The notes: generated by a model from the sequence alone, not told the origin. DNA of 52,240 nt from Candidatus Zhuqueibacterota bacterium (GCA_022562085.1 JADFPY010000001.1:1-52240); one strand, 5' to 3'. Positions 1,450 through 19,220 are shown, counted from the stretch's first letter. Numbers and translations are program-made.

Positions 1450-1469
1450 AACGTATAATTTCAAACGGA

Positions 1470-1642
1470 CACGGGTATTCTCAGTCTGGCATCTGTCAGA
1501 TTGTGAATGGAAGCCGGTGAAAATCCGGCGCTGCCCCGCAACTGTAAGCAGCTACGAAAGCCGCAAACAAGCCACTTTTCGAACATGATTGGGAAGGCGC
1601 GGTGATTAGGGTGAAGCTGCAAAGCCAGGAGACCTGCCCGTG
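1470..1642 (+). promoter_or_regulatory. Cobalamin (B12) riboswitch aptamer
   Basis: The conserved core GGAAGCCGGTGAAAATCCGGCGCTGCCCCGCAACTGTAA is present. A B12 box AGCCAGGAGACCTGCC lies at 1623-1638. P1 pairing is CACGGG (1470-1475) with CCCGTG (1637-1642). It sits in the leader of a TonB-dependent receptor gene. Confidence 0.9.
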
Positions 1643-1684
1643 GAAACCTTCGAGGGAAGGACAAGCTTAAAATCGATAACGGTT

Positions 1685-4118: not shown

Positions 4119-5039
4119 ATGAAAATCGTTTCGCTCTTACCCAGTGCAACCGAAATTGTTTATGCGCTTGGCTTAGGTGAGCAGCTTTTGGCGGTCACAC
4201 ACGAATGTGACTATCCGTCTGGAGCCACCGAGAAGCCGGTAATTACTTCAAGTGTTTTAGAGCATTCGCATAGTTCGAGTCTACAAATACACAAAGGCAT
4301 TACCGGCTTGGTTCATGAAGGAAAAAGCATTTACCATTTGAATGAAAAACTGCTTGCTGAAATTAAACCGGATTTGATTTTGACACAAGAACTATGTGAT
4401 GTTTGTGCAGTTTCTTATAACATTGTCTTTGAGGCAGCAAAAATTTTGGAGGGCGAGGAGGAAATTATTTCTCTGGAACCGCATTTTTTTCGAGATATTT
4501 TGTCAAACATTTTGCTGGTTGGAGAAAAGACAGGAAAGAATCAGCAAGCTAAACAGTTAATTGAATCGTTTGAGCAAAGAATTGCTTTTGTAGAGGATAA
4601 AACCAGCAAACTAACTGCTCCCCGCAAAGTTTATTGCATGGAATGGATCGATCCGCCGTTTGCTGCCGGCCACTGGATTTCCGAAATGGTATCGATTGCC
4701 GGCGGCAGAGAAGAGTTGGCCGTTAAGGGAAAGCCATCCGTGCAAATTGAGTGGCAAGATGTGGTTGATTACGCCCCGGAGATTCTTGTTTTCATGCCCT
4801 GCGGGTTTGGTTTAGAAAAATCGATTGCAGAAGCAAAGCAGGTTCAAAGTTGGCCGGGCTGGTCAGATCTCCCTGCTGTGCAAAAAGATCAAGTTTATGC
4901 GGTAGACGGCTCCTCATTTTTTAACCGGCCGGGTCCAAGGCTAGTCGATGGCCTCGAAATTCTTGCTCAAATACTCAATCCGGAGATTTTTTCTTCTATT
5001 TCACAGCAGCAAAATTACCAAAAAATACCTTTCGCCTGA
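4119..5039 (+). CDS. BtuF/FhuD-class periplasmic-binding-protein-fold protein (cobalamin-binding-like)
   Basis: N-terminus KIVSLLPSATEIVYALGLGEQLLAVTHECDYP and C-terminal FNRPGPRLVDGLEILAQIL are typical of PBP type-2 B12/siderophore binders. It is co-directional behind the riboswitch-controlled receptor. No signal peptide is evident. Confidence 0.7.
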   Translation: MKIVSLLPSATEIVYALGLGEQLLAVTHECDYPSGATEKPVITSSVLEHSHSSSLQIHKGITGLVHEGKSIYHLNEKLLAEIKPDLILTQELCDVCAVSYNIVFEAAKILEGEEEIISLEPHFFRDILSNILLVGEKTGKNQQAKQLIESFEQRIAFVEDKTSKLTAPRKVYCMEWIDPPFAAGHWISEMVSIAGGREELAVKGKPSVQIEWQDVVDYAPEILVFMPCGFGLEKSIAEAKQVQSWPGWSDLPAVQKDQVYAVDGSSFFNRPGPRLVDGLEILAQILNPEIFSSISQQQNYQKIPFA

Positions 5040-5537: not shown

Positions 5538-6476
5538 ATGCCTAGCAGCAGGATACTGGTTGTCGATGATGTCCCGGTAAATATTCAATTACTCGTTACC
5601 TATCTTGCTGCTGAAGGCTATGATGTCGTTTCGGCCAAAGATGGGCACGATGCGATGAAAGCGGTTAAGGAGCATCAGCCGGATTTGATTTTACTCGATG
5701 TTATGATGCCCAAAATGAATGGCTTTAAAGTCTGCGAAGTAATTAAATCTGATGACGCTACTAAATTTATTCCGGTGATTCTGGTGACGGCGCTTAACGA
5801 ATTGGAAGATAAAGTTAAAGGCATGAATTCCGGAGCTGATGACTTTTTGGCCAAACCGTTTAACAAATTAGAACTGCTTGTTAGAGTCCGTTCGCTATTG
5901 CGGATTAAGCATTTGCACGACGAGCTTCAGGAAAAAGTTATTGAGCTGCAAAGAACAAAAGAAGAATTGCGTCAGCTTGCTATTACAGATGGATTGACCG
6001 GTTTATATAATTATCGTTACTTCAAAGAGCAGTTGCTGCAGGAGTTAAAACGGGCGCAACGGCACAGTTTGAACATATCCGTTGTGATGATCGACATTGA
6101 TCACTTTAAACAATATAATGATAAAAATGGCCACCCTGCCGGCGACGTTGTCCTGAAAGACATTGCGCGATTACTTAGAGACAATATTCGAAATATTGAC
6201 CTGGCAGCAAGGTATGGCGGTGAAGAATTTTCCCTCATTCTCATTGAAACTGATAAACCGTCGGCAAAAATTGTATCTGAAAAAATAAGAAAGCTTGTCG
6301 AAGACTATGGTTTTGCTTATGAAAGTTCTCAGCCGGACGGTAAGCTGACCATAAGTACCGGTGTTGCAACATTCCCGGAAGACGGCGAAGATTTCGATAC
6401 TTTGGTCAGTAAAGCAGATCAACGATTATATCGTGCCAAAGAGGCGGGCAGGAACCTTATTTTTGTAGATTCATAG
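5538..6476 (+). CDS. Response regulator with GGDEF diguanylate cyclase output (PleD/WspR-like)
   Basis: REC motifs: LVVDDVPVN, DLILLDVMMPKMNGF, LAKPF. The GGDEF domain has an intact GGEEF and an RxxD I-site (RNID, five residues upstream). Confidence 0.9.
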   Translation: MPSSRILVVDDVPVNIQLLVTYLAAEGYDVVSAKDGHDAMKAVKEHQPDLILLDVMMPKMNGFKVCEVIKSDDATKFIPVILVTALNELEDKVKGMNSGADDFLAKPFNKLELLVRVRSLLRIKHLHDELQEKVIELQRTKEELRQLAITDGLTGLYNYRYFKEQLLQELKRAQRHSLNISVVMIDIDHFKQYNDKNGHPAGDVVLKDIARLLRDNIRNIDLAARYGGEEFSLILIETDKPSAKIVSEKIRKLVEDYGFAYESSQPDGKLTISTGVATFPEDGEDFDTLVSKADQRLYRAKEAGRNLIFVDS

Positions 6477-6481
6477 AGAGG

Positions 6482-7981
6482 TTGATGAAATTTCCATTTA
6501 TAAAAAGACCTTCAATTTTTAAGAAGTTATTTCTTTTAACATTTCTTGTTGCTGCAGTTCCAATTGGATTGTCCTGGATTTATTTTATCTACGTGGGCAC
6601 CGGCCTGGACAGCCAGGTTGATTTGCCCTTTGTCTATTACGGACTATTTATGTTGACTCTGTGTTTGGCTGTCATTGGCGCTTATTACTTTAGCAGGCAA
6701 ATCAGCCGTCCTATTACTCAGTTCAAAAATAGCGCCCTTGAAATTGCTCGCGGTAATTTCGACCATAAAATTTCAATAGATTCTGATGACGAAATAGGCA
6801 AACTGGCCAAAATTTTTGATTATATGACCGAGGAATTTCGCAAGCAGCATATTCAGGGAAGTCTGTCTCAGAAAAAGCAAATTGAGACGATTCTTCAGGA
6901 AATCGGGGATGGCGTTATTGTTACGGATGCGAATAATAAGATCCTGCGAATCAATTCAGTTGCAATTAAGTGGTTTAATTTGGATGAAAATAGCGAAAAA
7001 AAACCTCTTCGGGATTTAATTGAAGACGAAACATTGGTTAAATGTATAGATGAAATTGGCAGAAATAGCAAAAAGAAAAGTGCAACCATCGAGATAACTA
7101 CGTTACCGCTGGGTGAAACTAAACCCATAATTCTGCAAGCGTTGGCTTCCCGAATTGAAGACGACGAGGGCGTCGGAGCAGAAATGAATAACACGGAAGG
7201 GCTGATTGGTGTGGCGACGATTTTTCGGGATATTACCCGGGAAAAAGAAATAGATCGTTTAAAGACCGAATTGGTCTCTCTGGTTGCACATGAGCTCAGA
7301 TCCCCGCTCACTTGTATTTCCGGCTTTAGTGAATTGCTCCTGGATGAAACCATCACCCGCGATCAATCCGAGGAATATGCTTCCATTATCCTTAAGGAAT
7401 CAAATCGTTTAAGTGAGCTGATAAACAAGTTTCTGGATATTTCAAAAATTGAGGCTGGAAAAAGCCAGATTAGAAAAACTCCCGTCGATATAAAGATGCT
7501 GGTTGAAAAAGTACTGGATTTTAATTCTCAATTGGCTGACAGAAAGAAAATTAGTGTTACTTTAGAAGTGCCGTCGGAGGTCACGACGATTTACATCGAT
7601 CGGGATATGATGGAACAAGCAATTTTGAATGTATATTCAAATGCAATTAAATACAGCGCTGAAAAAGCCCACGTGACCGTACGGATCACTGAAAGTGAAG
7701 AGGAAATCCAAATCGGTATTGAAGATACGGGATTTGGTATTTCGGAGGAGTCGCTCCCACATATTTTTGACAAATTTTATAGAATCACTGATGACGAAAA
7801 AGTTCGAGATATCGCTGGCTCCGGATTAGGACTTTCATTAGTTAAGGAAATTGTAGAAATACACGGGGGTCTAATTAGGGTTAAGAGCAAGCTGGGTCAG
7901 GGGTCAACATTTACCGTCATTCTTCCCAAAAACAAACAAATGACAGAAGAGGAAAATATTGCTGAGCAGATGGCTGGTTAA
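6482..7981 (+). CDS. Membrane sensor histidine kinase (2 TM-HAMP-PAS-HisKA-HATPase_c)
   Basis: Two hydrophobic N-terminal segments. H-box VAHELRSPLTCISGF. ATPase boxes NAIKYS, DTGFGI, GSGLGLSLV. The start may be the ATG at 6485 rather than the TTG at 6482. Confidence 0.9.
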   Translation: MMKFPFIKRPSIFKKLFLLTFLVAAVPIGLSWIYFIYVGTGLDSQVDLPFVYYGLFMLTLCLAVIGAYYFSRQISRPITQFKNSALEIARGNFDHKISIDSDDEIGKLAKIFDYMTEEFRKQHIQGSLSQKKQIETILQEIGDGVIVTDANNKILRINSVAIKWFNLDENSEKKPLRDLIEDETLVKCIDEIGRNSKKKSATIEITTLPLGETKPIILQALASRIEDDEGVGAEMNNTEGLIGVATIFRDITREKEIDRLKTELVSLVAHELRSPLTCISGFSELLLDETITRDQSEEYASIILKESNRLSELINKFLDISKIEAGKSQIRKTPVDIKMLVEKVLDFNSQLADRKKISVTLEVPSEVTTIYIDRDMMEQAILNVYSNAIKYSAEKAHVTVRITESEEEIQIGIEDTGFGISEESLPHIFDKFYRITDDEKVRDIAGSGLGLSLVKEIVEIHGGLIRVKSKLGQGSTFTVILPKNKQMTEEENIAEQMAG

Positions 7982-8013: not shown

Positions 8014-9915
8014 ATGGATAATAACAAAAAGATAATTCTACTTGTGGATGATGATCCTGATATGCTTGAAATTGGCGGCATTATTGTTAAGCGAGCCGGA
8101 TATGGGTGCATCCCCGCTATGTCCGGAGAAGAGGGATTGGCCTCTCTAATCCAAAACAAGCCGGATCTGGTCATACTGGATTATATGATGCCTAACATGA
8201 ATGGGTTTGAGTTTTTCCAGCAACTCAGGCAAAATTCAAAATACAAAATTGTGCGGGATACGCCAGTTATTCTATTAACGGCTGCTTCTGAGAAAGAGAC
8301 AGAACGACAGAAGTTGTTCGAGTTAGGATTAAGCAATTTCCTATTGAAACCTTTTGGCAATCGCGAGTTGTTAAATATTATCGATAATGTCTTAATTCAA
8401 CATGAGCTACGTTTAAAAAATAAGGAGTTGCAAGAGCAGGTTAAGCGCATAGAATACAAATACCAGGACTTGATTGAGAATGCTAGTGATTTAATCTTCA
8501 CCTTAGATGTGCAGGCGAAGTTTGTTTTCATCAACAGACGCATGGCCACAATTTGTAAACAACATAGAGAAGATTGGATCGACAAGAGTTTTTTTGATAT
8601 TATTGTTGTCGAGGATCGGGAAGAGGCCGCAGCGAAAGTAAAGAAAACCATAGAAGGTCGGTCAAGAATTTTTGAAGTTCGGATTAAAAGCGAAAAGGGC
8701 AAATATATTTACCTTTCCATTAACATAAATCCAATATTCGAAAAGGGAGAAATTGTAGGATGTGTCGGTATTGCTCGGGATATCACCGAAAAGAAACAGC
8801 TAGGCCAGGAAATTGTTGAATTAAAAAATTTCAATGAGAGCATAATACAAAGTATAAGTTCAGGTTTAATTACAGTTGATCTGCATCATAAGATAACCTC
8901 TTTTAACCACAGTGCTGAAGAAGTGTTGGGATATCCGGAAATTGAGGTCATTGGCAAACCCTTAAATGAAGTTTTTGCAAAGGAAGATTGCGAAAAATTA
9001 CTGTCAAACATGGATGAGCCGGATAGAGAGCTTTTGAACCGTGAGATGCCGCTGACTGCCAAAGACGGCAATCGGGTTTATATCGGTTTTACCGTTACGC
9101 CAAGAATCGACACGCAAAATCGGCGGGTTGGCTCGATAATTTCTTTTAAGGACATTACGCAAATAAAACAGATGCAGGTCGAAGTTCAGAGGATGGATAG
9201 GTTGGCATCTATGGGGGTTCTGGCTTCAGGAATTGCCCATGAAATCAGAAACCCTCTCGCCGGTATCAAAACTATCGCCCAAACATTAGAGGAAGATATC
9301 GAGCCCGATGATTCCCGTCGTGAATATGTCTCCCGTATTGTTCGGCAAGTCAACCGGATGGATGATTTACTTAAGACAATCTTTTCTTATGCAAAACCCC
9401 GCCAGCCAAAAAGAAATTTGCACCGGTTCCAGGAAATAGTACAGGAAGTTGTTGCTTTATTGGAGAATCGAATGCGGGCACAATCTGTTAAATACATTGA
9501 AGCCTATCATTCTGATTTGCCCTTGGTTCATGTTGATTTTCATCAATTAGAACAGGTATTTGTAAATTTGTTTCTAAATGCCTTAGATGCCATGCCCAAA
9601 GGGGGCGAGTTAAAGCTCGAGGCCTATCCAAAAATAACGACGCTATGCCGTGTCGATCGGCGTGGGCGTTCTTTCTCGGTTCAAAACAAGAGCTCTCTGT
9701 ACACCGAGGTCAGCATAACCGATACCGGAGAGGGAATTGATTCGAGTAACCTGAATTCGATTTTCAATCCATTTTTCACCACCAAACCTCAGGGCTCTGG
9801 TTTGGGGTTGTCAATTGTTTATAGAATTATGTCGGAACATCAAGGAGATATCCAGGTAGGCACCACCACAAATAACGGTACGACATTTAAGCTCCTGTTA
9901 CCTACGGAGGGATAA
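8014..9915 (+). CDS. Cytoplasmic hybrid sensor kinase (REC-PAS-PAS-HisKA-HATPase_c)
   Basis: N-terminal receiver: LLVDDDPDM, DLVILDYMMPNMNGF, LLKPF. Two PAS-like segments. NtrB/AtoS-type H-box GIAHEIRNPLAGI. ATPase boxes DTGEGI, GSGLGLSIVY. Confidence 0.9.
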   Translation: MDNNKKIILLVDDDPDMLEIGGIIVKRAGYGCIPAMSGEEGLASLIQNKPDLVILDYMMPNMNGFEFFQQLRQNSKYKIVRDTPVILLTAASEKETERQKLFELGLSNFLLKPFGNRELLNIIDNVLIQHELRLKNKELQEQVKRIEYKYQDLIENASDLIFTLDVQAKFVFINRRMATICKQHREDWIDKSFFDIIVVEDREEAAAKVKKTIEGRSRIFEVRIKSEKGKYIYLSININPIFEKGEIVGCVGIARDITEKKQLGQEIVELKNFNESIIQSISSGLITVDLHHKITSFNHSAEEVLGYPEIEVIGKPLNEVFAKEDCEKLLSNMDEPDRELLNREMPLTAKDGNRVYIGFTVTPRIDTQNRRVGSIISFKDITQIKQMQVEVQRMDRLASMGVLASGIAHEIRNPLAGIKTIAQTLEEDIEPDDSRREYVSRIVRQVNRMDDLLKTIFSYAKPRQPKRNLHRFQEIVQEVVALLENRMRAQSVKYIEAYHSDLPLVHVDFHQLEQVFVNLFLNALDAMPKGGELKLEAYPKITTLCRVDRRGRSFSVQNKSSLYTEVSITDTGEGIDSSNLNSIFNPFFTTKPQGSGLGLSIVYRIMSEHQGDIQVGTTTNNGTTFKLLLPTEG

Positions 9916-9920
9916 GATTT

Positions 9921-11288
9921 ATGTCTAAGGGAAACATACTAATAGTCGAAGATAACGAAGATTTAGGCCTAACTCTGGCTGACGTTTTGAGAAAAGAAAG
10001 CAACAAAGTCAGCATTGCCTTAACCGGCGAGCATGCTTTGTCTGTCCTTCAAAAAGAGATAATCAACTTGGTTCTTTTGGATATTAAACTTCCCGACATT
10101 AATGGTATAGAGCTGCTTCAAAAAATTAAAGAGAAGGACCCGGATATTCTGGTAATTATGATAACTGCACTAACCGACGCTAAACCCGCGATAGACGCCA
10201 TGAAAATGGGCGCCTATGATTATTTGATGAAGCCGTTTGAATTGGATGAGCTTAAGATCGATGTGGCAAAAGCTCTGGAGACTCAGGATCTCAAAAGAGA
10301 GGTGACCCGACTCAAGAGCCAGCGCAAAGAGGCATTTCCAGACAATGAGCTTTTTGGAGAAACGGAACCGATACGCGAACTCAAGAAGCTGATTCATATC
10401 GTCGCATCAACACCGAAGACCTCTGTTTTGATTCAAGGTGAAAGCGGCACGGGAAAAGAGCTGGTTGCAAATGCTATTCATAACTGGAGCCAGCGTAAAG
10501 ATAAGCCGCTGGTTAAAATCAATTGCAGCGCGATTCCGGAAACTCTTCTGGAGAGCGAGCTGTTTGGTCATGAAAGGGGTTCGTTTACTGATGCCAAAAC
10601 TCTCAAAAAAGGCATCTTTGAAATGGCCAACAACGGCACGATTTTTTTAGATGAAATTTCCAGCATGCAGATGTCCATTCAACCGAAACTTTTGCGCGTA
10701 CTCGAAACCCAGTCTTTTCGGAGAATCGGCGGGACTTCAGACATCCAGATCGACGTGAGAATAATTGCCGCCACAAATAGAAATCTTGAAGATTGCATTG
10801 AGAAGCAGATTTTCAGGGAAGATTTATATTACCGACTGAAAGTGATGGTCATAAACATTCCACCGTTGCGGGAAAGGCAGGAGGATGTCATTCCGTTAGC
10901 TATGTTGTTTATTGAGCGAAACAACAAAGAAATTGTCAAAGAGATAAAAGGCATCTCTCCCGAAACTCAGGAGCGCATGCTGAAATACAACTGGCCAGGC
11001 AATGTTCGGGAACTTAAAAATGTGATCGAAAGAGCGGTTATTTTATGTGGCGAGGATAAACTCCAGTTAGACCATCTGCCGGAACTGCGAGATGGCGTTT
11101 CGAGACTAGGACCTTCCAAGGAATTTTCTTCCTTTTCAAGCGACGACGACTCCTTAGAAGCAATGGAGAAACAGCATATTTTTAGAATGCTGGAAAAATA
11201 TAACGGCAACAAGTCTCAAACTGCCCGAAACCTGAGCATCTCTCGTTCAACTCTTCGCGAGAAAATGAAAAACTACGGCATCGCTTGA
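9921..11288 (+). CDS. Sigma54-dependent response regulator (NtrC/AtoC family enhancer-binding protein)
   Basis: REC: ILIVEDNEDL, LVLLDIKLPDINGI, LMKPF. AAA+ domain: Walker A GESGTGKE, ESELFGHERGSFTDA (a variant of the GAFTGA loop), Walker B IFLDEI. C-terminal Fis-type HTH SQTARNLSISRSTLREKMKNYGI. Confidence 0.92.
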   Translation: MSKGNILIVEDNEDLGLTLADVLRKESNKVSIALTGEHALSVLQKEIINLVLLDIKLPDINGIELLQKIKEKDPDILVIMITALTDAKPAIDAMKMGAYDYLMKPFELDELKIDVAKALETQDLKREVTRLKSQRKEAFPDNELFGETEPIRELKKLIHIVASTPKTSVLIQGESGTGKELVANAIHNWSQRKDKPLVKINCSAIPETLLESELFGHERGSFTDAKTLKKGIFEMANNGTIFLDEISSMQMSIQPKLLRVLETQSFRRIGGTSDIQIDVRIIAATNRNLEDCIEKQIFREDLYYRLKVMVINIPPLRERQEDVIPLAMLFIERNNKEIVKEIKGISPETQERMLKYNWPGNVRELKNVIERAVILCGEDKLQLDHLPELRDGVSRLGPSKEFSSFSSDDDSLEAMEKQHIFRMLEKYNGNKSQTARNLSISRSTLREKMKNYGIA

Positions 11289-11494
11289 TTGGATTGGCCT
11301 AAAATCGGCCATCTGCTTGAGATTTCTTCAGCTTTTTTACCTTCCTAAATCTTCTATTTTTTTATTCTTATTAAGCATTTCGAGAGTTGTAAAAATTTCT
11401 TATTGAGTTAAGGTTTTGATTTTCTTTGACGAAACTATTTTGAGAGGTTTTCTCTCTATAAACTTTGAGCGAAAACAGATCAACACGTAAAAAA

Positions 11495-11510
11495 TGGTAC
11501 GGCCTTTGCT
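11495..11510 (+). promoter_or_regulatory. Sigma54 (RpoN) -24/-12 promoter
   Basis: TGGTACGGCCTTTGCT matches TGGCACG-N4-TTGCW with correct GG/GC spacing and one mismatch. It lies 50 nt upstream of the ParA-like start and directly downstream of an NtrC-type activator gene. Confidence 0.7.
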
Positions 11511-11560
11511 TTAATGATGCCAAAATAAGTTTATCAGAAATGACCAACTAAAGGAATGTT

Positions 11561-12379
11561 ATGGGAGAGGTTATCGCCATTTCCAGCCAGAAAGGTGGTG
11601 TTGGCAAAACGACAACAGCAGTAAATTTAGGCGCAAGTCTGGCCCATCTGGGGCATCGTGTCTTATTGATCGATATGGATCCCCAGGGAAGTGTTTCGGC
11701 AAGTTTCGGTCACAATCGTTATGATATCGTTGCCGGAATTATAGACATTTTTATTGAAGAGGTTCCAGTTTCAAAAGCAATTCATGCGACCGGGCAAGAT
11801 AATTTTGATTTTATCCCCACAAATTTATGGGCAGATGAAAGCGAAAAAAGAAAGTTAATTGGAATTGCTCCGAAAATACAATTAAAAAAGGTTTTGGAAC
11901 CCATTAAAGAAGACTACGATTTTATTCTGATTGATTGTCCGCCGTCTGTCGGAAATTTGACTTTTAATGCCCTGACAGCGGCCGACTCGATAATTATTCC
12001 AATCCAGTGCGAATACTACGCTCTCAAAGCTCTGGGACGCTTCCTGAAGCTCACCAGAATTATTAAAAATGAGTTGAATCCAAATTTAAGATACCGCGGT
12101 TTTTTGTTGACTATGGTGGATATACGAAATAAGCTCACTAATATAGTAATCGAAAAAATCCGGTGTACATTGCAGGGATTGGTTTTTGACACCATGATTC
12201 CAAGAAACATTAGGTTGGCCGAAGTTCCTTACCGCGGCGGTGCTGTGATAACCTTTGACAAAAGCTGCAAGGGTGCACAAAGCTATTTAGATTTAGCGAA
12301 CGAGGTCCTCGACCACAAAGTAAGAACCGTGGTAACCGCTGAAGAGTCTGAGAAAATAAACGTTGTAGAGGGAGTCTAA
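11561..12379 (+). CDS. Orphan ParA/Soj-family P-loop ATPase (no ParB partner nearby)
   Basis: Deviant Walker A SQKGGVGKTTTAVNLG, LIDMDPQG, Walker B ILIDCPPS. Soj-like C-terminal region IPRNIRLAEVPYRGGAVITFDKSCKGAQSYLDLANEV. Confidence 0.9.
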   Translation: MGEVIAISSQKGGVGKTTTAVNLGASLAHLGHRVLLIDMDPQGSVSASFGHNRYDIVAGIIDIFIEEVPVSKAIHATGQDNFDFIPTNLWADESEKRKLIGIAPKIQLKKVLEPIKEDYDFILIDCPPSVGNLTFNALTAADSIIIPIQCEYYALKALGRFLKLTRIIKNELNPNLRYRGFLLTMVDIRNKLTNIVIEKIRCTLQGLVFDTMIPRNIRLAEVPYRGGAVITFDKSCKGAQSYLDLANEVLDHKVRTVVTAEESEKINVVEGV

Positions 12380-12381
12380 TA

Positions 12382-12777
12382 TTGCCTACGATTCTTTTAG
12401 TTGAAGATGATACTAACACTCGTTTTGGACTTGCAGAGATTTTAACAAGTGAAGGCTACGACGTCGTATTAGCGGAGGATGCTGAGGAAGCCCTTGAAAA
12501 GGTAGACTGGGAAACCGACTTGCTATTATCAGATTTACAACTTCCCGGGATCTCTGGTTTGGCGTTGTGGAATCAAGCGAGGCAGCGGTACCCGGAGTTG
12601 GTTTCAATCATTATGACTGCATTTAACACTCCCGAAAATAAATTGCAAGCGGAGGATTCAGGGGTTTTCTCTTTTCTCAACAAGCCTTTGAATATTGATC
12701 AGTTGTTATCAGCAATAGAGAACGCACTGCTTCAAAATAAATTAAATGGGCGACATATTTTGATAAAGGCACTGTGA
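12382..12777 (+). CDS. Single-domain CheY-like response regulator
   Basis: TTG start 2 nt after the ParA-like stop. REC motifs: ILLVEDDTN, phospho-acceptor context LLLSDLQLPGISG, IMTAF, NKPL. No output domain. Confidence 0.85.
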   Translation: MPTILLVEDDTNTRFGLAEILTSEGYDVVLAEDAEEALEKVDWETDLLLSDLQLPGISGLALWNQARQRYPELVSIIMTAFNTPENKLQAEDSGVFSFLNKPLNIDQLLSAIENALLQNKLNGRHILIKAL

Positions 12778-13536
12778 TTGAATCGTGATTCATTTGAGTT
12801 CTTTTTAAATCGGAAGGAGGTAACGGTTTTGATAGTTTCATTTTTGGTTTCTATGTTTAAGAAGGCTTTATTTATGGGTCTCATGGTTTTGATGTTCGTA
12901 TCAGTGATGAGTTTTACCCACAATAATAGCTTAAAACTGCAGAAGGAACGCGAGACGCTCAGCGAAATCACGCGCGAGGTGCTGAACTATCAAGGGACTG
13001 TCAAGACAGAAAGTTTCCGAAAAAATGCCATCAACAAAATTATTGGCATCATTGACAGATATAATCGCACAATGAGTAGCAGCTTGAAATATGACATTGC
13101 CAGAGAAATCCAAAAGATGAGTGTTAAATATTCAAATTTGGATATCAATCTCATTTGTGCAACCATTACTCATGAAAGCGCGCGAAGTTGGCGGCCGGAA
13201 GTGGTGTCCCCGGCAGGAGCTTTGGGGTTGATGCAAATTATGCCATATACCGGGAAACATCTTGTCAAGCATGAAGGGATTAAGTGGACGTCTTCTAAGG
13301 AAGTTCTATTTAACCCGATTACCAATATAAGAATAGGCTGCCGTTATCTTTCCATGTTGGTTGAGCTTTACAATGTTGATGGCGGCCTTGCGGCCTATAA
13401 CGGCGGGCCAAGACGAGCCAAAAAATGGATTACCAGCGGGCGCAATTATGACGTTTTGCTGGAAGAAACCCGGTATTATGTACCCGCAGTTTTGGAATTA
13501 TATGATCATTATAAAAGCAGAACTTTGTTAGATTAG
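12778..13536 (+). CDS. Membrane-anchored lytic transglycosylase (SLT domain, GH23)
   Basis: Hydrophobic anchor ALFMGLMVLMFVSVMSF. Catalytic-Glu motif ATITHESARSW. GALGLMQIMPYTG and AAYNGGPRRA motifs. The true start may be internal, after the SD GGAAGGAGG at 12813-12821. Confidence 0.85.
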   Translation: MNRDSFEFFLNRKEVTVLIVSFLVSMFKKALFMGLMVLMFVSVMSFTHNNSLKLQKERETLSEITREVLNYQGTVKTESFRKNAINKIIGIIDRYNRTMSSSLKYDIAREIQKMSVKYSNLDINLICATITHESARSWRPEVVSPAGALGLMQIMPYTGKHLVKHEGIKWTSSKEVLFNPITNIRIGCRYLSMLVELYNVDGGLAAYNGGPRRAKKWITSGRNYDVLLEETRYYVPAVLELYDHYKSRTLLD

Positions 13537-13550
13537 GTTTAAGTTAAGAT

Positions 13551-15263
13551 ATGCCAGTAAAACCGAACGAGTTGTCAATAGATCATTTTCGTACCGAGCT
13601 GATAAATCGTTTTTTCCATTCTGAGAGTTACTTTTTACATTGTTTTGGCCACCACCTTCAGGCTTTCCTGGATGAGGGAGGCAACTCAAACAAGAATGAG
13701 TATCTGCTCGTCGGAAATTTGATGGATAAACTCGTCGCTTCTCAGAATGTCACTTCCGAATTCGAATCAATTTTAGCGCTGCAAGGTTTTGAAGAGTTCA
13801 AGGAAAGGCTCTCAAATGGAATTCAATACCTCTACGAGTCCGACCTGGAACCTGAAAAAATGAAAATCGAGATCGAGAGTCTGGCGCAATCGATGTTCGG
13901 CAGTGCAGTAGCTGCTTTTCAAAATGAAGAAAGCAATCATGAAATAAAAAGCCTGCTTGGGATTAATCTCATACCGGCAGATAGTGTAGATGTGTTAGAG
14001 TTACAGGAGCCATCTTCTGAAGGACCAGGATTAACGGAGTCAGAATTCTCAATGGAAGAGACAGACGGCATGGATGCCATTCCTCGGAACCAATTTGAAG
14101 AAAAGGATTTTCTTCTACCTGTGGATGAGGGCAAGGACGCGAACCCTGATGAACTGGAAGTTGGTTTGGTTGAAGAAGATGGCTCTCGTAACTCTGCCCA
14201 TGACGATGTTATCCTGATTAATAGTGAAGTAAGTCAGAAACCCGCAAGTGTTGATGAGGCCTTTCATTTGGCTGTGGGAAACCAAGTTAATGAATTACAG
14301 AATAAAATTGACCTTCTGAGCTCCGAGAACCATAACAGCAACAGCTTGCAGAAGTGTGATGAAATTTTTGAAAATATTCTTTCCAGTTCGATGATTTGTG
14401 GTTTTGACGCGGTTGAAGAAGTCGCTGCGCAAGCAAGAAGATTTTTAGCGAACCTAAGCAGACAGTCAAATTTTGACGGCTGTCTTGCAATCTCACTGCT
14501 GACAGAAACAGTCAGCGTTCTTAAGATGATTTTGGAAAACGACCCGGATAACGTTGACGAACAAGCAATTTCGAATCTTTCTCAAAACCTTCTGAACCCG
14601 AATACAGTTGTCCCTACCAAAGAAGACGCTTCCGTAGCGCCAAAACCAAATAAAGAAAAGAATGATGAGCCGGTTAATTCTGGGCACTCCAATCTTGATG
14701 AATTTAAACTACCTGGCGAGGATGAGATTTTTAGTTTAATTAGCGAAATATCTGGAAATAGTCCACTTCAACAAGGAGTGGATATGCCTCCGAAATCGTC
14801 ACCAGAGCCAGAGCCTGAAATTAGTGCTGACGTCATGCAGGCTGAACCTGAGGACTTACTTTCAAGTTATAAGCAGCAGGCGGAGCTTTATTTTAAGGTA
14901 ATTGAGCAAGCGCTGAATCTTCTTGAGGGGCAACCCGGCCATAAAACCGCTCTCAAAGATATTGAGCTCGCTTGCAAATCGCTCTACGAGCTTTTAATGA
15001 AAATGAACCTGGATTCCATCGCTAAAACACCTGCACTTATGTCCAAATTAATCAATAGCATAATAAGCAATAGATATTCGCTGTCCACACACGAGCATAG
15101 CTTAATCAAAAATTCACTCAAAGATTTTCATGATATTGCCAACGTAGTTGATACGGAAAGACGAGAGTTTAAGGAAAACCTCGCTTCACTACAATCTTTG
15201 AATTCAAAAATTAAAATGAGCCAATCTCCATTACCCGATGCCAGAACGATAGACAAATTTTAA
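13551..15263 (+). CDS. 570-aa hyper-acidic protein with two HPt/CheA-P1-like helical modules lacking the acceptor His (putative scaffold)
   Basis: Long D/E/P/S-rich low-complexity stretches (for example SSPEPEPEISADVMQAEPEDLL). Two segments (about nt 14280-14540 and 14866-15160) fit the HPt helix pattern by eye (...IFENILSSSMICGFDAVEEVAAQARRFL...; ...LACKSLYELLMKMNLDSIAKTPALMSKLI...). I recognise no other family. Confidence 0.45.
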   Translation: MPVKPNELSIDHFRTELINRFFHSESYFLHCFGHHLQAFLDEGGNSNKNEYLLVGNLMDKLVASQNVTSEFESILALQGFEEFKERLSNGIQYLYESDLEPEKMKIEIESLAQSMFGSAVAAFQNEESNHEIKSLLGINLIPADSVDVLELQEPSSEGPGLTESEFSMEETDGMDAIPRNQFEEKDFLLPVDEGKDANPDELEVGLVEEDGSRNSAHDDVILINSEVSQKPASVDEAFHLAVGNQVNELQNKIDLLSSENHNSNSLQKCDEIFENILSSSMICGFDAVEEVAAQARRFLANLSRQSNFDGCLAISLLTETVSVLKMILENDPDNVDEQAISNLSQNLLNPNTVVPTKEDASVAPKPNKEKNDEPVNSGHSNLDEFKLPGEDEIFSLISEISGNSPLQQGVDMPPKSSPEPEPEISADVMQAEPEDLLSSYKQQAELYFKVIEQALNLLEGQPGHKTALKDIELACKSLYELLMKMNLDSIAKTPALMSKLINSIISNRYSLSTHEHSLIKNSLKDFHDIANVVDTERREFKENLASLQSLNSKIKMSQSPLPDARTIDKF

Positions 15264-15300
15264 AGAAGATAAAGTTTTATTCGCATTACATCATGATGAT

Positions 15301-16941
15301 ATGGTTAGTACAATGGCAAACAAAATTAAGACTGAAATAGATAAGCAACTGGAAGCAGTTCTCAGTTCACATAAAACCAAAATTCGTATTGTCGGTACAG
15401 GTGGGGGAGGAAACAACACGGTCACCCGGTTAGTTGAAGTCGGCATTAGTGAGGTTGACGTAATTGCCGTAAATACGGATGCCCAGGACTTGCTCTATGC
15501 CAAAGCTGATCACAAGGTTTTGATTGGCAAAAACATTACCCATGGCCTGGGAGCTGGCAGCGATCCTCAAAAAGGTGAAGATTCAGCGAAAGAAAACATT
15601 GAGGAACTGGAGGAAGTTCTCTCTGACAGCGATATGGTTTTTATCACCTGCGGACTGGGCGGGGGCACAGGAACAGGTTCAGCTCCGGTCATTGCTGAGA
15701 TTTCCAAGAGATGTGGGGCACTGACCATAGCGGTGGTAACATTGCCATTTAGCGACGAAGGCGTTATTAGATGGGAAAATGCTCGAAAAGGCCTCGAACA
15801 GTTACAGAATAACGTTGATACGGTCATTGTCGTTCAGAACGACCTGCTATTAGATTTAGTTCCGGATATGCCCCTGAATGCTGCTTTTAAATTTGCAGAC
15901 GAAATTTTAGTGAATGCGGTTAAAGGAATCACCGAGCTGGTGACCGAGAAGGGCCTGGTAAATCTGGACTTTGCCGATGTGAAAACCATCATGCAAGGCG
16001 GCGGACTTGCGATGATCGGTTTGGGAGAAACAGATTCGCAAGAAAACATCGAAGAAGCAGCCAAGAAAGCGCTGGAAAATCCGCTGCTAGATATCGATAT
16101 TACTGGCGCGAAGAGCGCGTTGATTAACATAACCGGCGGTCAAGATATGTCTTTGAAGTCAGCGAAAACCATTATGAAGACAGTTGCCGAGCAATTAGAT
16201 CCATCTGCGAAAATTATTTGGGGAACCCGAATCGACGAATCTATGGGGCAGTCCCTGAGAGTGATGCTCATCGTGACCTGCTTGAAATCCGGCCAACCCT
16301 CGACCTCTGGGAAGGAAACCCGGCCGAGCTTCGAAATAAGTGACGAAACGTCTTCCCAAGATGAAGCCGAAGAGGTTCAAGTGGTTGAAAATTCAGACAC
16401 AGCTTCGCAGCATCCTTCCAAATCTCAAAAAGTATTTTCCGAAATTTTCATGGAAGAGACAGAAACGGACATTTCAGTCCTGGAAGAAGCGATTAATAAC
16501 TTAGCTGTAGAAAGTGGTGAGAACGAGAAACATCTTAGTGACATTAGCACCTCTGCTTCATCTATTTACAGTTCATCTGAATTGTTTGATTATGACAAAA
16601 TATCAGAGTTCGCAGAACTTTTGGGAGAAGTTACTAAAGATGCATTAAATGGTAAACTCAATCTTTCTGAAGACGTCATAGAATTATTTCAACAAATGCC
16701 TTCAGCGTTAAGAAGTGCCACGAAAGGAGATGGAAAAGACCTCGAAGAGATAAAGCAAAGTATTCTGAAGTTACTGGACTCGATTATTCAATCGCGCGAC
16801 ACCGATTCGGCTCCGGATTTTGAATCCACTGATGAAGAGCCTGAGATTCTTAATGAATCCGAAGCTCAGGAAGAGGAAGTTGAGGATCTTGAGCATACAA
16901 ATGTTCGTGAAACGGTAAAATACTTTGATAAACTGCTTTAA
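15301..16941 (+). CDS. ftsZ: FtsZ-family tubulin-like GTPase with about 210-aa C-terminal extension (acidic linker, HPt-like module, acidic tail)
   Basis: Motifs present: IRIVGTGGGGNNTV, NTDAQDL, GLGAGSDPQKG, tubulin signature FITCGLGGGTGTG, VVTLPFSDEG, T7 loop NLDFADV, and C-terminal domain motifs AMIGLGE...ALENPLLD...INITGG. There is no adjacent ftsA or other dcw genes. Confidence 0.9.
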   Translation: MVSTMANKIKTEIDKQLEAVLSSHKTKIRIVGTGGGGNNTVTRLVEVGISEVDVIAVNTDAQDLLYAKADHKVLIGKNITHGLGAGSDPQKGEDSAKENIEELEEVLSDSDMVFITCGLGGGTGTGSAPVIAEISKRCGALTIAVVTLPFSDEGVIRWENARKGLEQLQNNVDTVIVVQNDLLLDLVPDMPLNAAFKFADEILVNAVKGITELVTEKGLVNLDFADVKTIMQGGGLAMIGLGETDSQENIEEAAKKALENPLLDIDITGAKSALINITGGQDMSLKSAKTIMKTVAEQLDPSAKIIWGTRIDESMGQSLRVMLIVTCLKSGQPSTSGKETRPSFEISDETSSQDEAEEVQVVENSDTASQHPSKSQKVFSEIFMEETETDISVLEEAINNLAVESGENEKHLSDISTSASSIYSSSELFDYDKISEFAELLGEVTKDALNGKLNLSEDVIELFQQMPSALRSATKGDGKDLEEIKQSILKLLDSIIQSRDTDSAPDFESTDEEPEILNESEAQEEEVEDLEHTNVRETVKYFDKLL

Positions 16942-16964
16942 TTTCAGCTGCTAATATTGAAAGC

Positions 16965-17534
16965 ATGAACTCGTCAAGTATGCAGGATCCCTCATTGCAA
17001 AAACCTTATGTTCGCAAGGTAATGCGAGGTTTAAAAAAGATAAGGATTGCCCTTGCCAGGGTTCATGACAACCCGAACAATCGCGATGCTTGTATTGAAA
17101 TTCGGAACACAGCCCAATCAATTTCCGAACTTGCAATGATACATGGGTATCACGGCGTCGAAAGCATCGCGCGCAAGATTTATACCTCATTTAAGCGGTC
17201 CAAAATTAAATCAGATCCTGATTTTCTTTACAAAATCGAACTCGCTGTCAAAGGCATTCAACGTGTGGTGGGAATGGAAGACGGGATAGAGAGTAAATTG
17301 ACCATTGAAAAGGTAACTCGGGGCGCGAAAGAGGTCTCTAAACAAATCTCAAGTCTCGATGAGCTTAGTGAAGAGCAGCGCCAAATGGTTGAATTGGAAA
17401 GTGACGCGAAACTTTTATTTGATATAAAAGAGAGCGATTTTTTAAACAATATTCCAGGTGTACCCATCTCAAAAAATATAAAAACCGATCTTAAGATCAA
17501 CCCGAACCGGCAAGATACCTTCCTGAGCAGATAA
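16965..17534 (+). CDS. 189-aa HPt/CheA-P1-like protein without acceptor histidine
   Basis: VMRGLKKIRIALARVHDNPNNRDACIEIRNTAQSISELAMIHGYHGVESIARKIYTSFKR...DPDFLYKIELAVKGIQRVV fits the HPt four-helix pattern by eye. Gln occupies the position ten residues before the conserved Gly, where His is expected. Confidence 0.4.
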   Translation: MNSSSMQDPSLQKPYVRKVMRGLKKIRIALARVHDNPNNRDACIEIRNTAQSISELAMIHGYHGVESIARKIYTSFKRSKIKSDPDFLYKIELAVKGIQRVVGMEDGIESKLTIEKVTRGAKEVSKQISSLDELSEEQRQMVELESDAKLLFDIKESDFLNNIPGVPISKNIKTDLKINPNRQDTFLSR

Positions 17535-17561
17535 ATAAAATCGTCTCATAACACCTCCGAC

Positions 17562-17592
17562 GCCAGCTTTTCAATCGAAAGGCTGGCTTTTT
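17562..17592 (+). terminator. Rho-independent terminator closing the ParA-to-HPt operon
   Basis: GCCAGC (17562-17567) pairs with GCTGGC (17582-17587), followed by TTTTT. Confidence 0.6.
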
Positions 17593-17678
17593 ATTTGTAA
17601 GTCAATTATGGCCGTAGACCTATTTGACAGGTTCAACTTCGAATATCTTTGAACTATCGTCTAACATTTAGAAAACGG

Positions 17679-17707
17679 TTGATTTTTTCACCGAAATTTA
17701 TTAAAAT
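17679..17707 (+). promoter_or_regulatory. Candidate sigma70 promoter of guaB (TTGATT-17 nt-TAAAAT)
   Basis: Hexamers at 17679-17684 and 17702-17707 with a 17-nt spacer, about 40 nt upstream of the guaB start. Confidence 0.4.
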
Positions 17708-17747
17708 GGCTTAACTAAAATCATATTTGGAGAATTTTGGAGACTAA

Positions 17748-19220
17748 ATGCACAAAAAAGTTATTGGCGAAGCGTTAACTTTTGATGATGTTTTGCTGGT
17801 ACCGGATTATTCCGAGGTTTTGCCCAAAGAAACAGATACCCAAAGCTGGTTAACTAAAACCATTCAACTAAATCTGCCTTTAGTTGCGGCGGCGATGGAT
17901 ACGGTAACAGAATCCGGGCTGGCGATTGCTCTCGCCCGTGAAGGAGGCATTGGGATTATTCATAAAAACATGTCGATTCAGCAGCAGGTAGAAGAAGTGG
18001 ATCGCGTGAAACGCTCGGAAAGCGGCATGATTTACAACCCGATTACTTTAACACCGGTACACAAAGTTAAAGAAGCCATGTCGCTCATGAACCGGTATAA
18101 AATTTCAGGCATCCCCATTGTCGAAGGATCAAAATTGGTGGGCATTTTAACCAACCGCGATTTGAGATTTGAAATCGATACTGAATTGGAAATTAAACAG
18201 GTGATGACAAGCGGTAATTTAGTGACGGTTCCGGCCGGCACTACCTTAGAACAAGCTGAGAAGATTCTGCAAAAAAACCGCATTGAAAAACTCCCGGTGG
18301 TCGATGGCGATAATAATCTTAAAGGTTTAATCACAGTGAAAGACATCCAGAAAAAGCGCCTTTACCCAATGGCTGCGAAAGATGGGCACGGGCGGCTGCG
18401 AGTCGGCGCTGCTGTCGGTGTTGCAAACGATACTCTGGAACGAGTACAGGCGCTGGTTGACGTGCAGGTAGACGTTATTGCAATTGATACGGCTCACGGA
18501 CATTCAAGAGGTGTGATTGAAACGGTAAAACGGGTCCGGCAGAAATATCCAAAAGTGCAAATTATAGCCGGGAACGTTGCGACAGGTGAAGGGGCGCGTG
18601 CTTTGATTCAAGCCGGGGCCAATGCTATAAAAGTTGGCATGGGACCGGGCGCAATTTGTACCACTCGCGTAGTTGCGGGCATTGGTATGCCGCAGATCAC
18701 GGCAATTATGAATTGCGCCGAAGTCTGTCAAGAACATCAAATTCCCCTAATTTCAGATGGCGGGGTTAAACAGACCGGTGACATTCCGAAAGCGATCGCA
18801 GCGGGTGCGGACACAGTTATGATTGGTAACTTGTTTGCCGGGACCGAAGAGAGTCCTGGTGAAAAAATTTACTTAGGCGGCAGAAGTTTTAAACTTTACA
18901 GGGGTATGGGTTCTCTTTCCGCAATGCAGCAAGGGAGCAAGGACAGGTATTTTCAGGAGGGAGAGAAGGATTTGCGAAAATTAGTTCCCGAAGGAATCGA
19001 AGGCCGGGTGCCTTATCGTGGAAAACTGAGTGAGGCAGTCTATCAAATGGTTGGTGGTCTAAAAGCGGCCATGGGGTACTGTGGCACAAATAATATTGAA
19101 GAACTTAAGAAGAAAGGTCAGTTTGTTAAGATTACCGGTGCCGGTTTAATGGAGAGTCATCCTCACGATATCGTCATTTCCCGGGAAGCCCCGAATTATA
19201 ATATCGATCGAATTCAATAA
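17748..19220 (+). CDS. guaB: IMP dehydrogenase
   Basis: N-terminus [17 protein letters not shown], a CBS pair insert, catalytic loop [11 protein letters not shown], and [11 protein letters not shown]. Confidence 0.97.

Follow-up and report, generated by a model that had tools for sequence, protein, structure and literature searches.

The stretch of DNA analysed here (hereafter the window) comprises 52,240 nucleotides from a Candidatus Zhuqueibacterota bacterium (GCA_022562085.1, JADFPY010000001.1:1-52240) and contains a gene for an FtsZ protein in which a core that, by its sequence, is archaeal FtsZ1-like is followed by an extension modelled as a histidine phosphotransfer (HPt) fold of the CheA P1 type lacking the phospho-accepting histidine. 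This protein, called FtsZ-pseudoHPt below, is 100% identical to the NCBI entry 'cell division protein FtsZ [candidate division KSB1 bacterium]'. Its gene is laid out as follows (aa, amino acid positions).

15301..16941, + strand: FtsZ-pseudoHPt fusion gene, 546 aa, ATG start (Pfam and NCBIfam)
15379..15861, + strand: Tubulin/FtsZ GTPase domain, aa 27-187 (Pfam PF00091, E 9e-45)
15658-15678, + strand: GGGTGTG signature, aa 120-126 (coordinates and alignment of relatives)
15961..15978, + strand: T7 synergy loop NLDFAD, aa 221-226, bearing the catalytic Asp (alignment of 21 relatives)
16003..16284, + strand: FtsZ C-terminal domain (FtsZ_C), aa 235-328 (Pfam PF12327, E 1e-32)
16291..16419, + strand: acidic S/T-rich linker, aa 331-373, holding the SFEISDE motif (composition)
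16420..16803, + strand: CheA-P1-like pseudo-HPt domain, aa 374-501, five predicted helices (AlphaFold, Foldseek, Pfam Hpt)
16558..16560, + strand: codon of Ser420, equivalent to the phospho-accepting His48 of CheA (gapless profile alignment with E. coli CheA P1)
16804..16905, + strand: acidic segment, aa 502-535, predicted disorder (pLDDT < 55; composition)
16906..16938, + strand: terminal helix RETVKYFDKLL, aa 536-546, conserved and a candidate peptide for docking or membrane binding (family consensus, AlphaFold)

The original prediction, made from the sequence alone, described a full FtsZ with intact GTPase motifs, and the family searches bear it out: the Pfam GTPase and C-terminal domains are both recognized, the protein scores 413.9 bits against the NCBIfam equivalog TIGR00065 (ftsZ), well above the cutoff of 295.2, and the GGGTGTG and NLDFAD motifs are invariant in 21 of 21 diverse aligned relatives. 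Judging from these matches, the gene encodes a complete and apparently GTPase-competent FtsZ. The archaeal-type signature strings quoted in the prediction are present in the protein, and residue counts agree with the acidic linker and acidic tail that it had proposed, the 43 residues of the linker (aa 331-373) comprising 10 D/E, 13 S/T and 2 K/R, and the 34 residues of the tail segment (aa 502-535) 15 D/E and no K/R. The protein ends in a short predicted helix (aa 536-545, residues 165-174 of the extension in the AlphaFold model) with the family consensus ..S.V.EAVKYFDKLF. The canonical bacterial FtsA/ZipA-binding peptide (IP.[FY][IL]R[KR], or D-I-P-x-F-L-R type) is absent from the window FtsZ, as had been anticipated; its tail reads RETVKYFDKLL, whereas canonical FtsZ proteins of the Fibrobacterota-Chlorobiota-Bacteroidota (FCB) group end in IPAYIRRL. 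The gene also lies outside the dcw context: family scans of the window proteins recovered no dcw, ftsA or sepF gene across the 52 kb, and no dcw gene occurs within 10 kb of an FtsZ-pseudoHPt-type gene in about 55 related loci.

The relatives of the core were sought in several sequence collections. Among sequences from the Protein Data Bank (PDB), the core scores 394 bits against the M. jannaschii FtsZ1 ('FtsZ homolog 1'), gapless across 318 residues, 344 bits against a second chain (9v7v), 238-282 bits against the remaining FtsZ chains listed, which were taken to be bacterial, and about 61 bits against CetZ. In a collection of 1.84 billion representatives, the nearest sequences beyond its own clade are proteins of 360-400 aa, and the named ones are archaeal (Thermoplasmatota, Methanobrevibacter). 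A scan of species-representative genomes, for which the C-terminal family alignment served as query and which rested on a single motif at the end of the core (LD[PA].A[KR][IV]IWG), recovered only archaeal genomes and one 'Sulfurovum' contig besides the bacterial family; the same scan using the single FtsZ-pseudoHPt protein as query gave no matches. The archaeal genes recovered with the motif (DPANN, methanogen FtsZ1) are 57-66% identical to the window core and sit in the FKBP26-ftsZ-(secE)-Spt5 neighbourhood typical of archaeal ftsZ1. Within a set of 85 labelled cores, the window core shares 48-66% identity (mean 60%) with the 23 archaeal FtsZ1 and 42-46.5% (mean 44%) with the 9 canonical bacterial FtsZ. 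An archaeal FtsZ1 clade without the bacterial proteins was obtained in 1.3% of 300 neighbour-joining bootstraps of these cores, so the bacterial pseudo-HPt clade nests within FtsZ1 diversity, and in a larger neighbour-joining tree the window core again falls within FtsZ1 and not with bacterial FtsZ. The archaeal type that had been predicted for the core is thus supported, and it does not branch inside bacterial FtsZ. FtsZ-pseudoHPt is better read as a xenologue than as the 'paralogue' of the prediction. The contig labelled Sulfurovum sp. (L063, JAIVYC010000031.1) is 6.5 kb long, carries an archaeal-type FtsZ1 between FKBP26 and Spt5/NusG, and is probably archaeal, mis-binned into a bacterial metagenome-assembled genome (MAG).

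A survey of FtsZ and tubulin published in 2023 detected no notable ftsZ transfer between archaea and bacteria in either direction, and reported that archaeal sequences attract bacterial ones in joint FtsZ trees (PMC9871819). Both points would suit another explanation, in which the gene is a divergent bacterial paralogue and its archaeal resemblance an artefact (convergence, long-branch attraction, or contamination or chimerism of the MAG contig). We regard this as very improbable, since the identity to archaeal FtsZ1 over the gapless core, set against the lower values for bacterial FtsZ, is an excess of similarity and not a long branch, and since the genes around the FtsZ gene are bacterial (a σ54 activator, an SLT-family lytic transglycosylase, guaB, mutS), on contigs of up to 1.27 Mb from many independent assemblies. 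Contamination or chimerism was rejected, as many long contigs of independent origin show this bacterial context. To judge from the sequence comparisons, the locus looks like a seemingly clear counter-example to the absence of ftsZ transfer between archaea and bacteria.

The second half of the protein is of a different nature. The Pfam Hpt model (PF01627) matches aa 381-472 of the full protein with 24.0 bits (E 4.6e-5) against a cutoff of 24.6, the isolated extension exceeds that cutoff with 25.7 bits, and 17 of 32 diverse relatives are matched as well (E < 0.01). Conserved blocks of the extension in the family are VFSEIF.EE, ELF.Y..I and the terminal ..AVKYFDKLF. The AlphaFold model of the extension, built on a 32-sequence alignment, comprises five helices of high confidence (aa 374-501), followed by an acidic stretch predicted as disordered and by a short helix at the end; its pLDDT is 82.6, exceeding 90 over most of the five-helix domain and falling below 55 in the acidic stretch. 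Its best Foldseek match in the PDB is the Salmonella CheA P1 domain (1I5N, TM 0.83, rmsd 1.9 Å over 126 columns), and the other top matches are the E. coli P1-CheY complex 2LP4 and the R. sphaeroides CheA3-P1 with CheY6, 3KYJ. In a profile alignment with the E. coli CheA P1, whose sequence contains the RAAHSIKG motif, the extension aligns without gaps through helices A-D at about 20% identity, and His48 stands opposite Ser420. The HPt/CheA-P1-like helical module of the prediction is thus supported, the extension being predicted with confidence as a five-helix domain of this type and not as plain linker.

The resemblance to HPt domains invites the explanation that this is a working phosphotransfer domain, FtsZ being a phosphorelay node between a hybrid kinase and a receiver. 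The Pfam match and the P1 fold would agree with it, as would the hybrid kinase with a receiver domain and the stand-alone receiver encoded nearby, a classic HPt setting. Nevertheless, the phospho-site column contains S, T, A or N in the family, K in a related group (clade B) and I in a third, long type; none of the more than 60 sequences of the three clades has His there, and the equivalent of CheA Glu70 in the window protein, by residue count on the CheA P1 profile alignment, is Gly. Since no member has a His at the phospho-site, the domain is a pseudo-HPt and no normal phosphorelay step is expected of it; on its sequence, it cannot accept phosphate on histidine. A functional HPt was rejected for lack of the phospho-acceptor, and the phosphorelay node is accordingly given hardly any credence. 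According to the model, the extension is a CheA-P1-type HPt fold lacking the phospho-accepting histidine. The prediction that a signalling domain had replaced the partner-binding end of FtsZ holds for the type of fold, but the domain lies between the core and a short C-terminal helix that has been kept, and its phospho-His is missing (Ser420). In one subgroup of relatives (L027-L030/L042) the FtsZ C-termini read ..KLGMELN or ..KLRMDLN and resemble the archaeal FtsZ1 terminal ..ELGIEFVD; they may be a relic of the donor's C-terminal peptide, a motif short enough for the likeness to be due to chance.

The fusion is, by sequence comparison, common to three bacterial clades (KSB1, Calditrichota-type and unclassified MAGs). 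About 30 species-level genomes, labelled KSB1, Caldithrix/Calditrichaceae, Zhuqueibacterota or plain 'bacterium', keep a full array of genes in the order kinase, hybrid kinase, σ54 activator, in some a PatA-type receiver, ParA, receiver, SLT, X, FtsZ and Y (X and Y being the flanking proteins described below). In clade B, which is more distant, the core is 46-54% identical and the tail is GETGYIVDRLKEL; its loci keep a REC-GGDEF gene, the kinases, the σ54 activator, the promoter and FtsZ, without ParA, SLT and X. The long type, of 700-790 aa, has the tail VMDYLDDFL and a different gene context. As the pseudo-HPt module recurs in clade B and in the long type (hhalign probabilities of 98.9% and 99.3%), the fusion probably arose once, and the P1-like domain would have been acquired a single time. 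Altogether, the archaeal-type FtsZ is conserved and diversified in at least about 55 species-level bacterial genomes. Full-text searches, which covered subscription journals in part, found no description of an FtsZ-HPt fusion, of an archaeal-type FtsZ in KSB1 or Calditrichota, or of the operon.

The genes on either side of FtsZ-pseudoHPt encode two proteins, X and Y, that matched no Pfam or NCBIfam family. They and the linker motif related to Y are as follows.

13551..15263, + strand: protein X, 570 aa, with three degenerate HPt-like modules at about aa 10-120, 238-349 and 438-550 (hhalign)
16965..17534, + strand: protein Y, 189 aa, with one HPt-like module at aa 11-102 and an FDI.E motif at aa 152-156 (hhalign)
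16327-16347, + strand: SFEISDE, a variant of the (L)FDI(K)E motif, FtsZ aa 343-349 (comparison with the linkers of relatives)

Each of the 29 orthologues of X lies directly upstream of the FtsZ gene and each of the 27 orthologues of Y directly downstream of it. In comparisons of profiles, which for X and Y were orthologue alignments from the related loci, the FtsZ extension matches X with hhalign probabilities of 97.2% (X aa 438-550) and 95.0% (X aa 238-349) and Y with 95.7% (Y aa 11-102), and the second module of long Y orthologues matches it with 97.4%; Y and X match each other with 99.5% across 344 columns, and X is internally repeated. The profile-profile link suggests that X and Y consist of the same pseudo-HPt module as the FtsZ extension. 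The phospho-site of their modules is occupied by Gln in Y and by Lys or varying residues in X, and there is no His. A single-sequence AlphaFold model of Y contains a four-helix unit with pLDDT 74-92.

Besides the module, the proteins have short motifs in common. The (L)FDI(K)E motif, which is invariant among the Y orthologues, also occurs in FtsZ linkers from several clades; it may be a docking motif common to both. The X proteins of one subgroup terminate in ..GKYFKQLL and resemble the tail of FtsZ in this. The long Y orthologues (270-490 aa; L018, L019, L021, L022, L031, L033, L034, L036, L038, L047) have basic amphipathic tails at their C-termini, for example ..VRLKKVFGMY, ..HKIGRLFGGK and ..SYLKRFINK, which we take to resemble the membrane-targeting helices of MinD and FtsA; the short Y of the window has no such tail. 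The X orthologues also have a conserved N-terminal ELINRFFH..SYF motif.

The three proteins are encoded in a larger arrangement of genes and sites, whose other members are these.

5538..6476, + strand: REC-GGDEF response regulator-diguanylate cyclase, first gene of the upstream signalling block (Pfam Response_reg and GGDEF)
6482..7981, + strand: histidine kinase, HAMP-PAS-HisKA-HATPase (Pfam; syntenic in the family and in clade B loci)
8014..9915, + strand: hybrid histidine kinase, REC-PAS-PAS-HisKA-HATPase (Pfam; an orthologue 55-75% identical at the same position in about 30 loci)
9921..11288, + strand: NtrC-type σ54 activator, REC-AAA+ Sigma54_activat-HTH_8 (Pfam Sigma54_activat, 230 bits; syntenic in 43 loci)
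11495..11510, + strand: predicted σ54 -24/-12 promoter element TGGTACGGCCTTTGCT, 51 bp before the start codon of the ParA-like gene (motif scan)
11561..12379, + strand: orphan ParA/MinD-family P-loop ATPase with a KGGVGKT deviant Walker A (Pfam AAA_31/CbiA/MipZ; syntenic)
12382..12777, + strand: stand-alone receiver domain (REC), 131 aa (Pfam Response_reg, 84.7 bits)
12778..13536, + strand: membrane-anchored SLT-family lytic transglycosylase (Pfam SLT, aa 118-222; syntenic)
17562..17587, + strand: intrinsic terminator, 11-bp stem with 6 GC pairs and a T-run (terminator scan)

The ParA/MinD-like, receiver, SLT, X, FtsZ-pseudoHPt and Y genes follow one another in this order with spacings of 0-37 bp. 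The ParA-like ATPase falls below the cutoffs of all NCBIfam ParA and MinD models, the single-domain receiver between ParA and SLT is also found in two related loci (L003, L005), and the SLT protein has an N-terminal hydrophobic segment at about aa 14-50. Downstream, the terminator sits 28 nt past Y and is the only terminator-like site on the + strand in 11200-17800. Upstream, the promoter element TGGTACGGCCTTTGCT falls in the 272-bp gap after the activator gene. With two mismatches allowed, the number of σ54 sites across the window equals expectation, and a lone site could be due to chance. In 33 of the 43 related loci, a strict σ54 motif follows the activator gene at a distance of 127-400 bp on the operon strand, and it is the only match on that strand in each locus of about 20 kb, against a background of 0.011 per kb. 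In many relatives a PatA_N (PATAN)-receiver gene separates the σ54 activator from the ParA-like gene or lies close by (L003 5138-5809; L005 4163-4897; L001/L002 19642-21261); the window has none between these two genes. Because of this interposed gene, the motif is directly upstream of the ParA-like gene in 2 of 27 relatives, and the figure of 33 was obtained by scanning from the end of the activator gene. The six genes are thus read, from sequence features, as an operon bounded by a conserved predicted σ54 promoter and an intrinsic terminator, directly downstream of the kinases and the σ54 activator, and this wiring predicts conditional expression. Neither the operon with its predicted σ54 control nor the module common to both flanking proteins figured in the original prediction. 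Orthologues of the REC-GGDEF gene that heads the signalling block precede the kinases in clade B loci, at 50-55% identity, and also in L016, whose flank is long enough to show it. No rpoN gene lies within the 52-kb window. PADLOC gave partial generic P-loop and REC matches for the operon proteins and nothing for SLT, X, FtsZ and Y; an anti-phage defence system was rejected, as no system was assigned.

Whether FtsZ-pseudoHPt coexists with another FtsZ can be approached through published gene counts. Among 44 KSB1 MAGs, the KEGG orthologue K03531 (ftsZ) was counted twice in 29, once in 14 and not at all in one, a kind of count that fragments or contamination can inflate and that does not tell the type of each copy, and ftsA, ftsQ and ftsW were mostly present once each (Li et al. 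2022, PMC9012183, supplement 7). In the same table, a single ftsZ is usual among MAGs of clade III (10 of 12) and two are usual in clades I, II and IV, and the accessory FtsZ may be clade-restricted within KSB1. FtsZ is never mentioned in the text of that paper (PMC9012183), nor is ftsZ in the paper on Zhuqueibacterota (= KSB1) and its supplements. In the scan of species-representative genomes, whose motif detects all three archaeal-like types, no assembly occurs twice. Since most KSB1 MAGs have two ftsZ and each genome a single archaeal-like type, the second copy should be of another type, presumably canonical. The predicted σ54 control and the missing FtsA-binding peptide also point to an extra copy. 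FtsZ-pseudoHPt is most likely an additional FtsZ beside a canonical one, whose presence in this particular genome is deduced from its relatives.

Among the outcomes that would have told against it, the original prediction had listed a sole division ftsZ of the lineage with the same tail in all relatives. The tail in fact varies among relatives, and two ftsZ are present in 29 of the 44 KSB1 MAGs, the latter on the authority of the published table. One can still imagine that the archaeal gene displaced the bacterial one, left the dcw cluster and became the main or only division FtsZ. The protein passes the FtsZ equivalog model and NCBI names it simply FtsZ, its GTPase residues are intact, a canonical KSB1 FtsZ was never directly seen, and 14 of the 44 MAGs have a single K03531 match. 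Yet most of these MAGs combine two ftsZ with ftsA, ftsQ and ftsW while each genome has one archaeal-like type, the FtsA-binding peptide is missing, a σ54 promoter under a two-component system is unlike that of a housekeeping division gene, and the nearest canonical relatives from the FCB group keep ftsZ at the dcw end: the canonical ftsZ reached with seeds from the representative set, labelled Zixibacteria, GN15 or 'FCB group' and all from other assemblies, stand without exception at the end of textbook dcw clusters. Displacement of the canonical gene is thus quite improbable.

Taken together, these data are best explained by a signal-induced accessory FtsZ system of archaeal origin with pseudo-HPt adaptors, an overall reading that we hold with a confidence slightly better than even. 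According to this scenario, an archaeal ftsZ1 would have entered an ancestor within or near the FCB-group phyla, gained a P1-like domain once and become an accessory FtsZ beside the canonical dcw-linked one. The adjacent two-component system would switch the operon on via σ54, FtsZ-pseudoHPt would polymerise, and the pseudo-HPt modules on FtsZ, X and Y would act as protein-protein adaptors. These modules most likely would dock the co-encoded receiver domain or domains, so that the scaffolding or anchoring of the filaments would depend on phosphorylation state; receiver docking is favoured because receivers are the natural partners of HPt and P1 domains and the closest structures are P1-receiver complexes, docking on P1 being the documented interaction of the top structural matches (P1-CheY in 2LP4, CheA3P1-CheY6 in 3KYJ). 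Y, with the basic amphipathic tails that it has in many lineages, and/or the terminal helix of FtsZ would tether the assembly to the membrane, the ParA/MinD-like ATPase would position it, and the SLT enzyme would cut peptidoglycan at its site. The outcome would be a localised, signal-induced septation-like or shape-remodelling event rather than housekeeping division.

Several observations weigh against this scenario or parts of it. The trees are neighbour-joining trees on corrected p-distances and not maximum likelihood ones, the archaeal comparators were for the most part found by a motif that the query also has, and the monophyly of the bacterial pseudo-HPt clade received 50% support only. 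The Pfam Hpt model matches 1 of 29 X and 2 of 27 Y orthologues, and the Y model resembles generic or designed four-helix bundles about as well as HPt domains. The signature loop of the σ54 activator is GSFTDA in place of GAFTGA. No canonical ftsZ was retrieved from the MAG of the window or from any assembly with FtsZ-pseudoHPt, as the seeds reached only sequences labelled Zixibacteria, GN15 and 'FCB group', and the tendency of MAG counts to inflation bears on the second copy too. Finally, receiver binding by the pseudo-HPt, membrane tethering, positioning by the ParA-like protein and the cellular outcome are steps that we infer from sequence.

The role of the modules is where the interpretations diverge. 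A more specific proposal is that KSB1 and the phyla next to it possess, as a second system, an inducible machine resembling the Z-ring and centred on an FtsZ taken from archaea. The His-less P1 domains on FtsZ and on its two scaffold or anchor partners would be receptors for a phosphorylated receiver, and a signal would control both transcription (through σ54) and, directly, the assembly or membrane attachment of the polymer, which would guide a dedicated SLT enzyme; we put it forward as a tentative idea, on the doubtful side. Alternatively, the modules could be purely structural: FtsZ, X and Y would hetero-oligomerise to bundle or anchor filaments, in the manner of ZapA, SepF or PomX/PomY-type scaffolds, with no receiver binding, and signalling would be limited to transcription. 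The presence of at least five copies of one module across three adjacent proteins, none of which retains the His or the equivalent of CheA Glu70, fits such a role, as does the fact that four-helix bundles commonly pack together; the KYF.QLL end of X in one subgroup, which is the FtsZ tail motif, suggests a common docking site. Conversely, the stand-alone receiver conserved in the operon and the PatA-type receiver of many relatives are hard to explain if phosphorylation acts via the σ54 activator alone, and the closest structures are P1 domains solved with CheY-type receivers. We consider the purely structural role possible, though not probable, and retain the signal-induced accessory system with adaptor modules as the best overall explanation.

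The comparison with characterized systems helps to delimit what is particular to the locus. The window protein has the core sequence and signature motifs of archaeal FtsZ1 (M. jannaschii FtsZ1, PDB 1FSZ/1W58), and one bacterial subgroup retains an ELGIEF-like C-terminal peptide. It differs in its bacterial host, in the roughly 210 extra residues with the pseudo-HPt domain, in its tail (VKYFDKLL, without the ..ELGI[ED]F[VI][DE] or ELGIEFVD peptide) and in its context, a σ54 operon with ParA-like, REC and SLT genes instead of the FKBP26/secE/spt5 neighbourhood. With canonical dcw FtsZ it has in common the fold, the GTPase motifs, the T7 loop and the succession of core, disordered linker and short C-terminal peptide, but it is not beside ftsA or ftsQ, a folded domain is inserted in its linker and its promoter is predicted to be σ54-dependent. 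The extension has the five-helix topology of CheA P1/HPt domains (PF01627; 1I5N, 2LP4, 3KYJ), and receiver-domain genes lie nearby. Unlike CheA, it has neither the phospho-His nor the P2-P5 kinase domains, it is joined to a cytoskeletal GTPase, and its module is multiplied in two partner proteins. A precedent for an HPt fold that has lost its histidine is the Arabidopsis protein AHP6, which probably works by partner binding and not by phosphate transfer; AHP6 is a stand-alone plant signalling inhibitor, whereas the module of the window, CheA-P1-like and from a bacterium, forms part of an FtsZ and recurs in proteins that resemble scaffolds.

Accessory FtsZ-family proteins include the second FtsZ copies found away from dcw in Bipolaricaulota, the truncated paralogues of Hyphomicrobiales, the magnetosome FtsZm and the archaeal CetZ. 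Like these proteins, FtsZ-pseudoHPt is most likely an extra member of the tubulin/FtsZ family, outside dcw, in a conserved locus and with a presumed specialised role (PMC9871819; bioRxiv 2025.09.29.679267). The bacterial accessory paralogues are, however, duplications of the bacterial gene, often truncated, whereas the window FtsZ has an archaeal-type core, an extension derived from a signalling domain and predicted σ54 control. As in MinCDE, MipZ and PomXYZ, a ParA/MinD-family ATPase is encoded with FtsZ and two non-enzymatic partners, which recalls the PomZ ATPase and the PomX/PomY scaffolds of Myxococcus. Pfam and NCBIfam scans of the window proteins detected no homology to MinC, MinE, PomX or PomY, the partners here being pseudo-HPt repeat proteins, and the unit includes a receiver and a lytic transglycosylase. 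CetZ offers an analogy for the control of shape rather than division. PomXYZ and MinD (for positioning) and CetZ (for signal-linked shape control) are therefore invoked as functional analogies, with no implication of membership by sequence.

The evolution of FtsZ is usually described as vertical within each domain, and an archaeal-type FtsZ1 fixed in bacteria would contradict that description; on the more specific proposal made above, ftsZ1 would have crossed here from archaea into bacteria, in the first clear case of its kind. The architecture, an FtsZ fused to a dead CheA-P1 domain and accompanied by two partners made of the same module, is undescribed in the literature searched. If the mechanism holds, it would be a tractable example of the conversion of a signalling domain into a cytoskeletal adaptor, and would show how bacteria could operate a further FtsZ system, dependent on a stimulus, for changes of shape or for events resembling division; the more specific proposal would add the first direct coupling of two-component receiver domains to the anchoring of FtsZ polymers. 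What is new here concerns the origin, the domain architecture and the regulatory context of an FtsZ-family cytoskeletal protein; its identity and context are well supported, and the mechanism is a reasoned hypothesis. The locus offers concrete proteins to express and test from phyla without cultured members.

Elsewhere in the window, a cobalamin riboswitch (Rfam RF00174, 92 bits) at 1456-1655 (+) lies upstream of genes for a TonB-dependent receptor (1837-3981) and a periplasmic binding protein (4119-5039), and together they form an ordinary B12-uptake locus. The whole window appears to be on the leading strand, since 40 of 41 open reading frames of at least 150 aa are on the + strand and the GC skew is positive throughout 1-52240.

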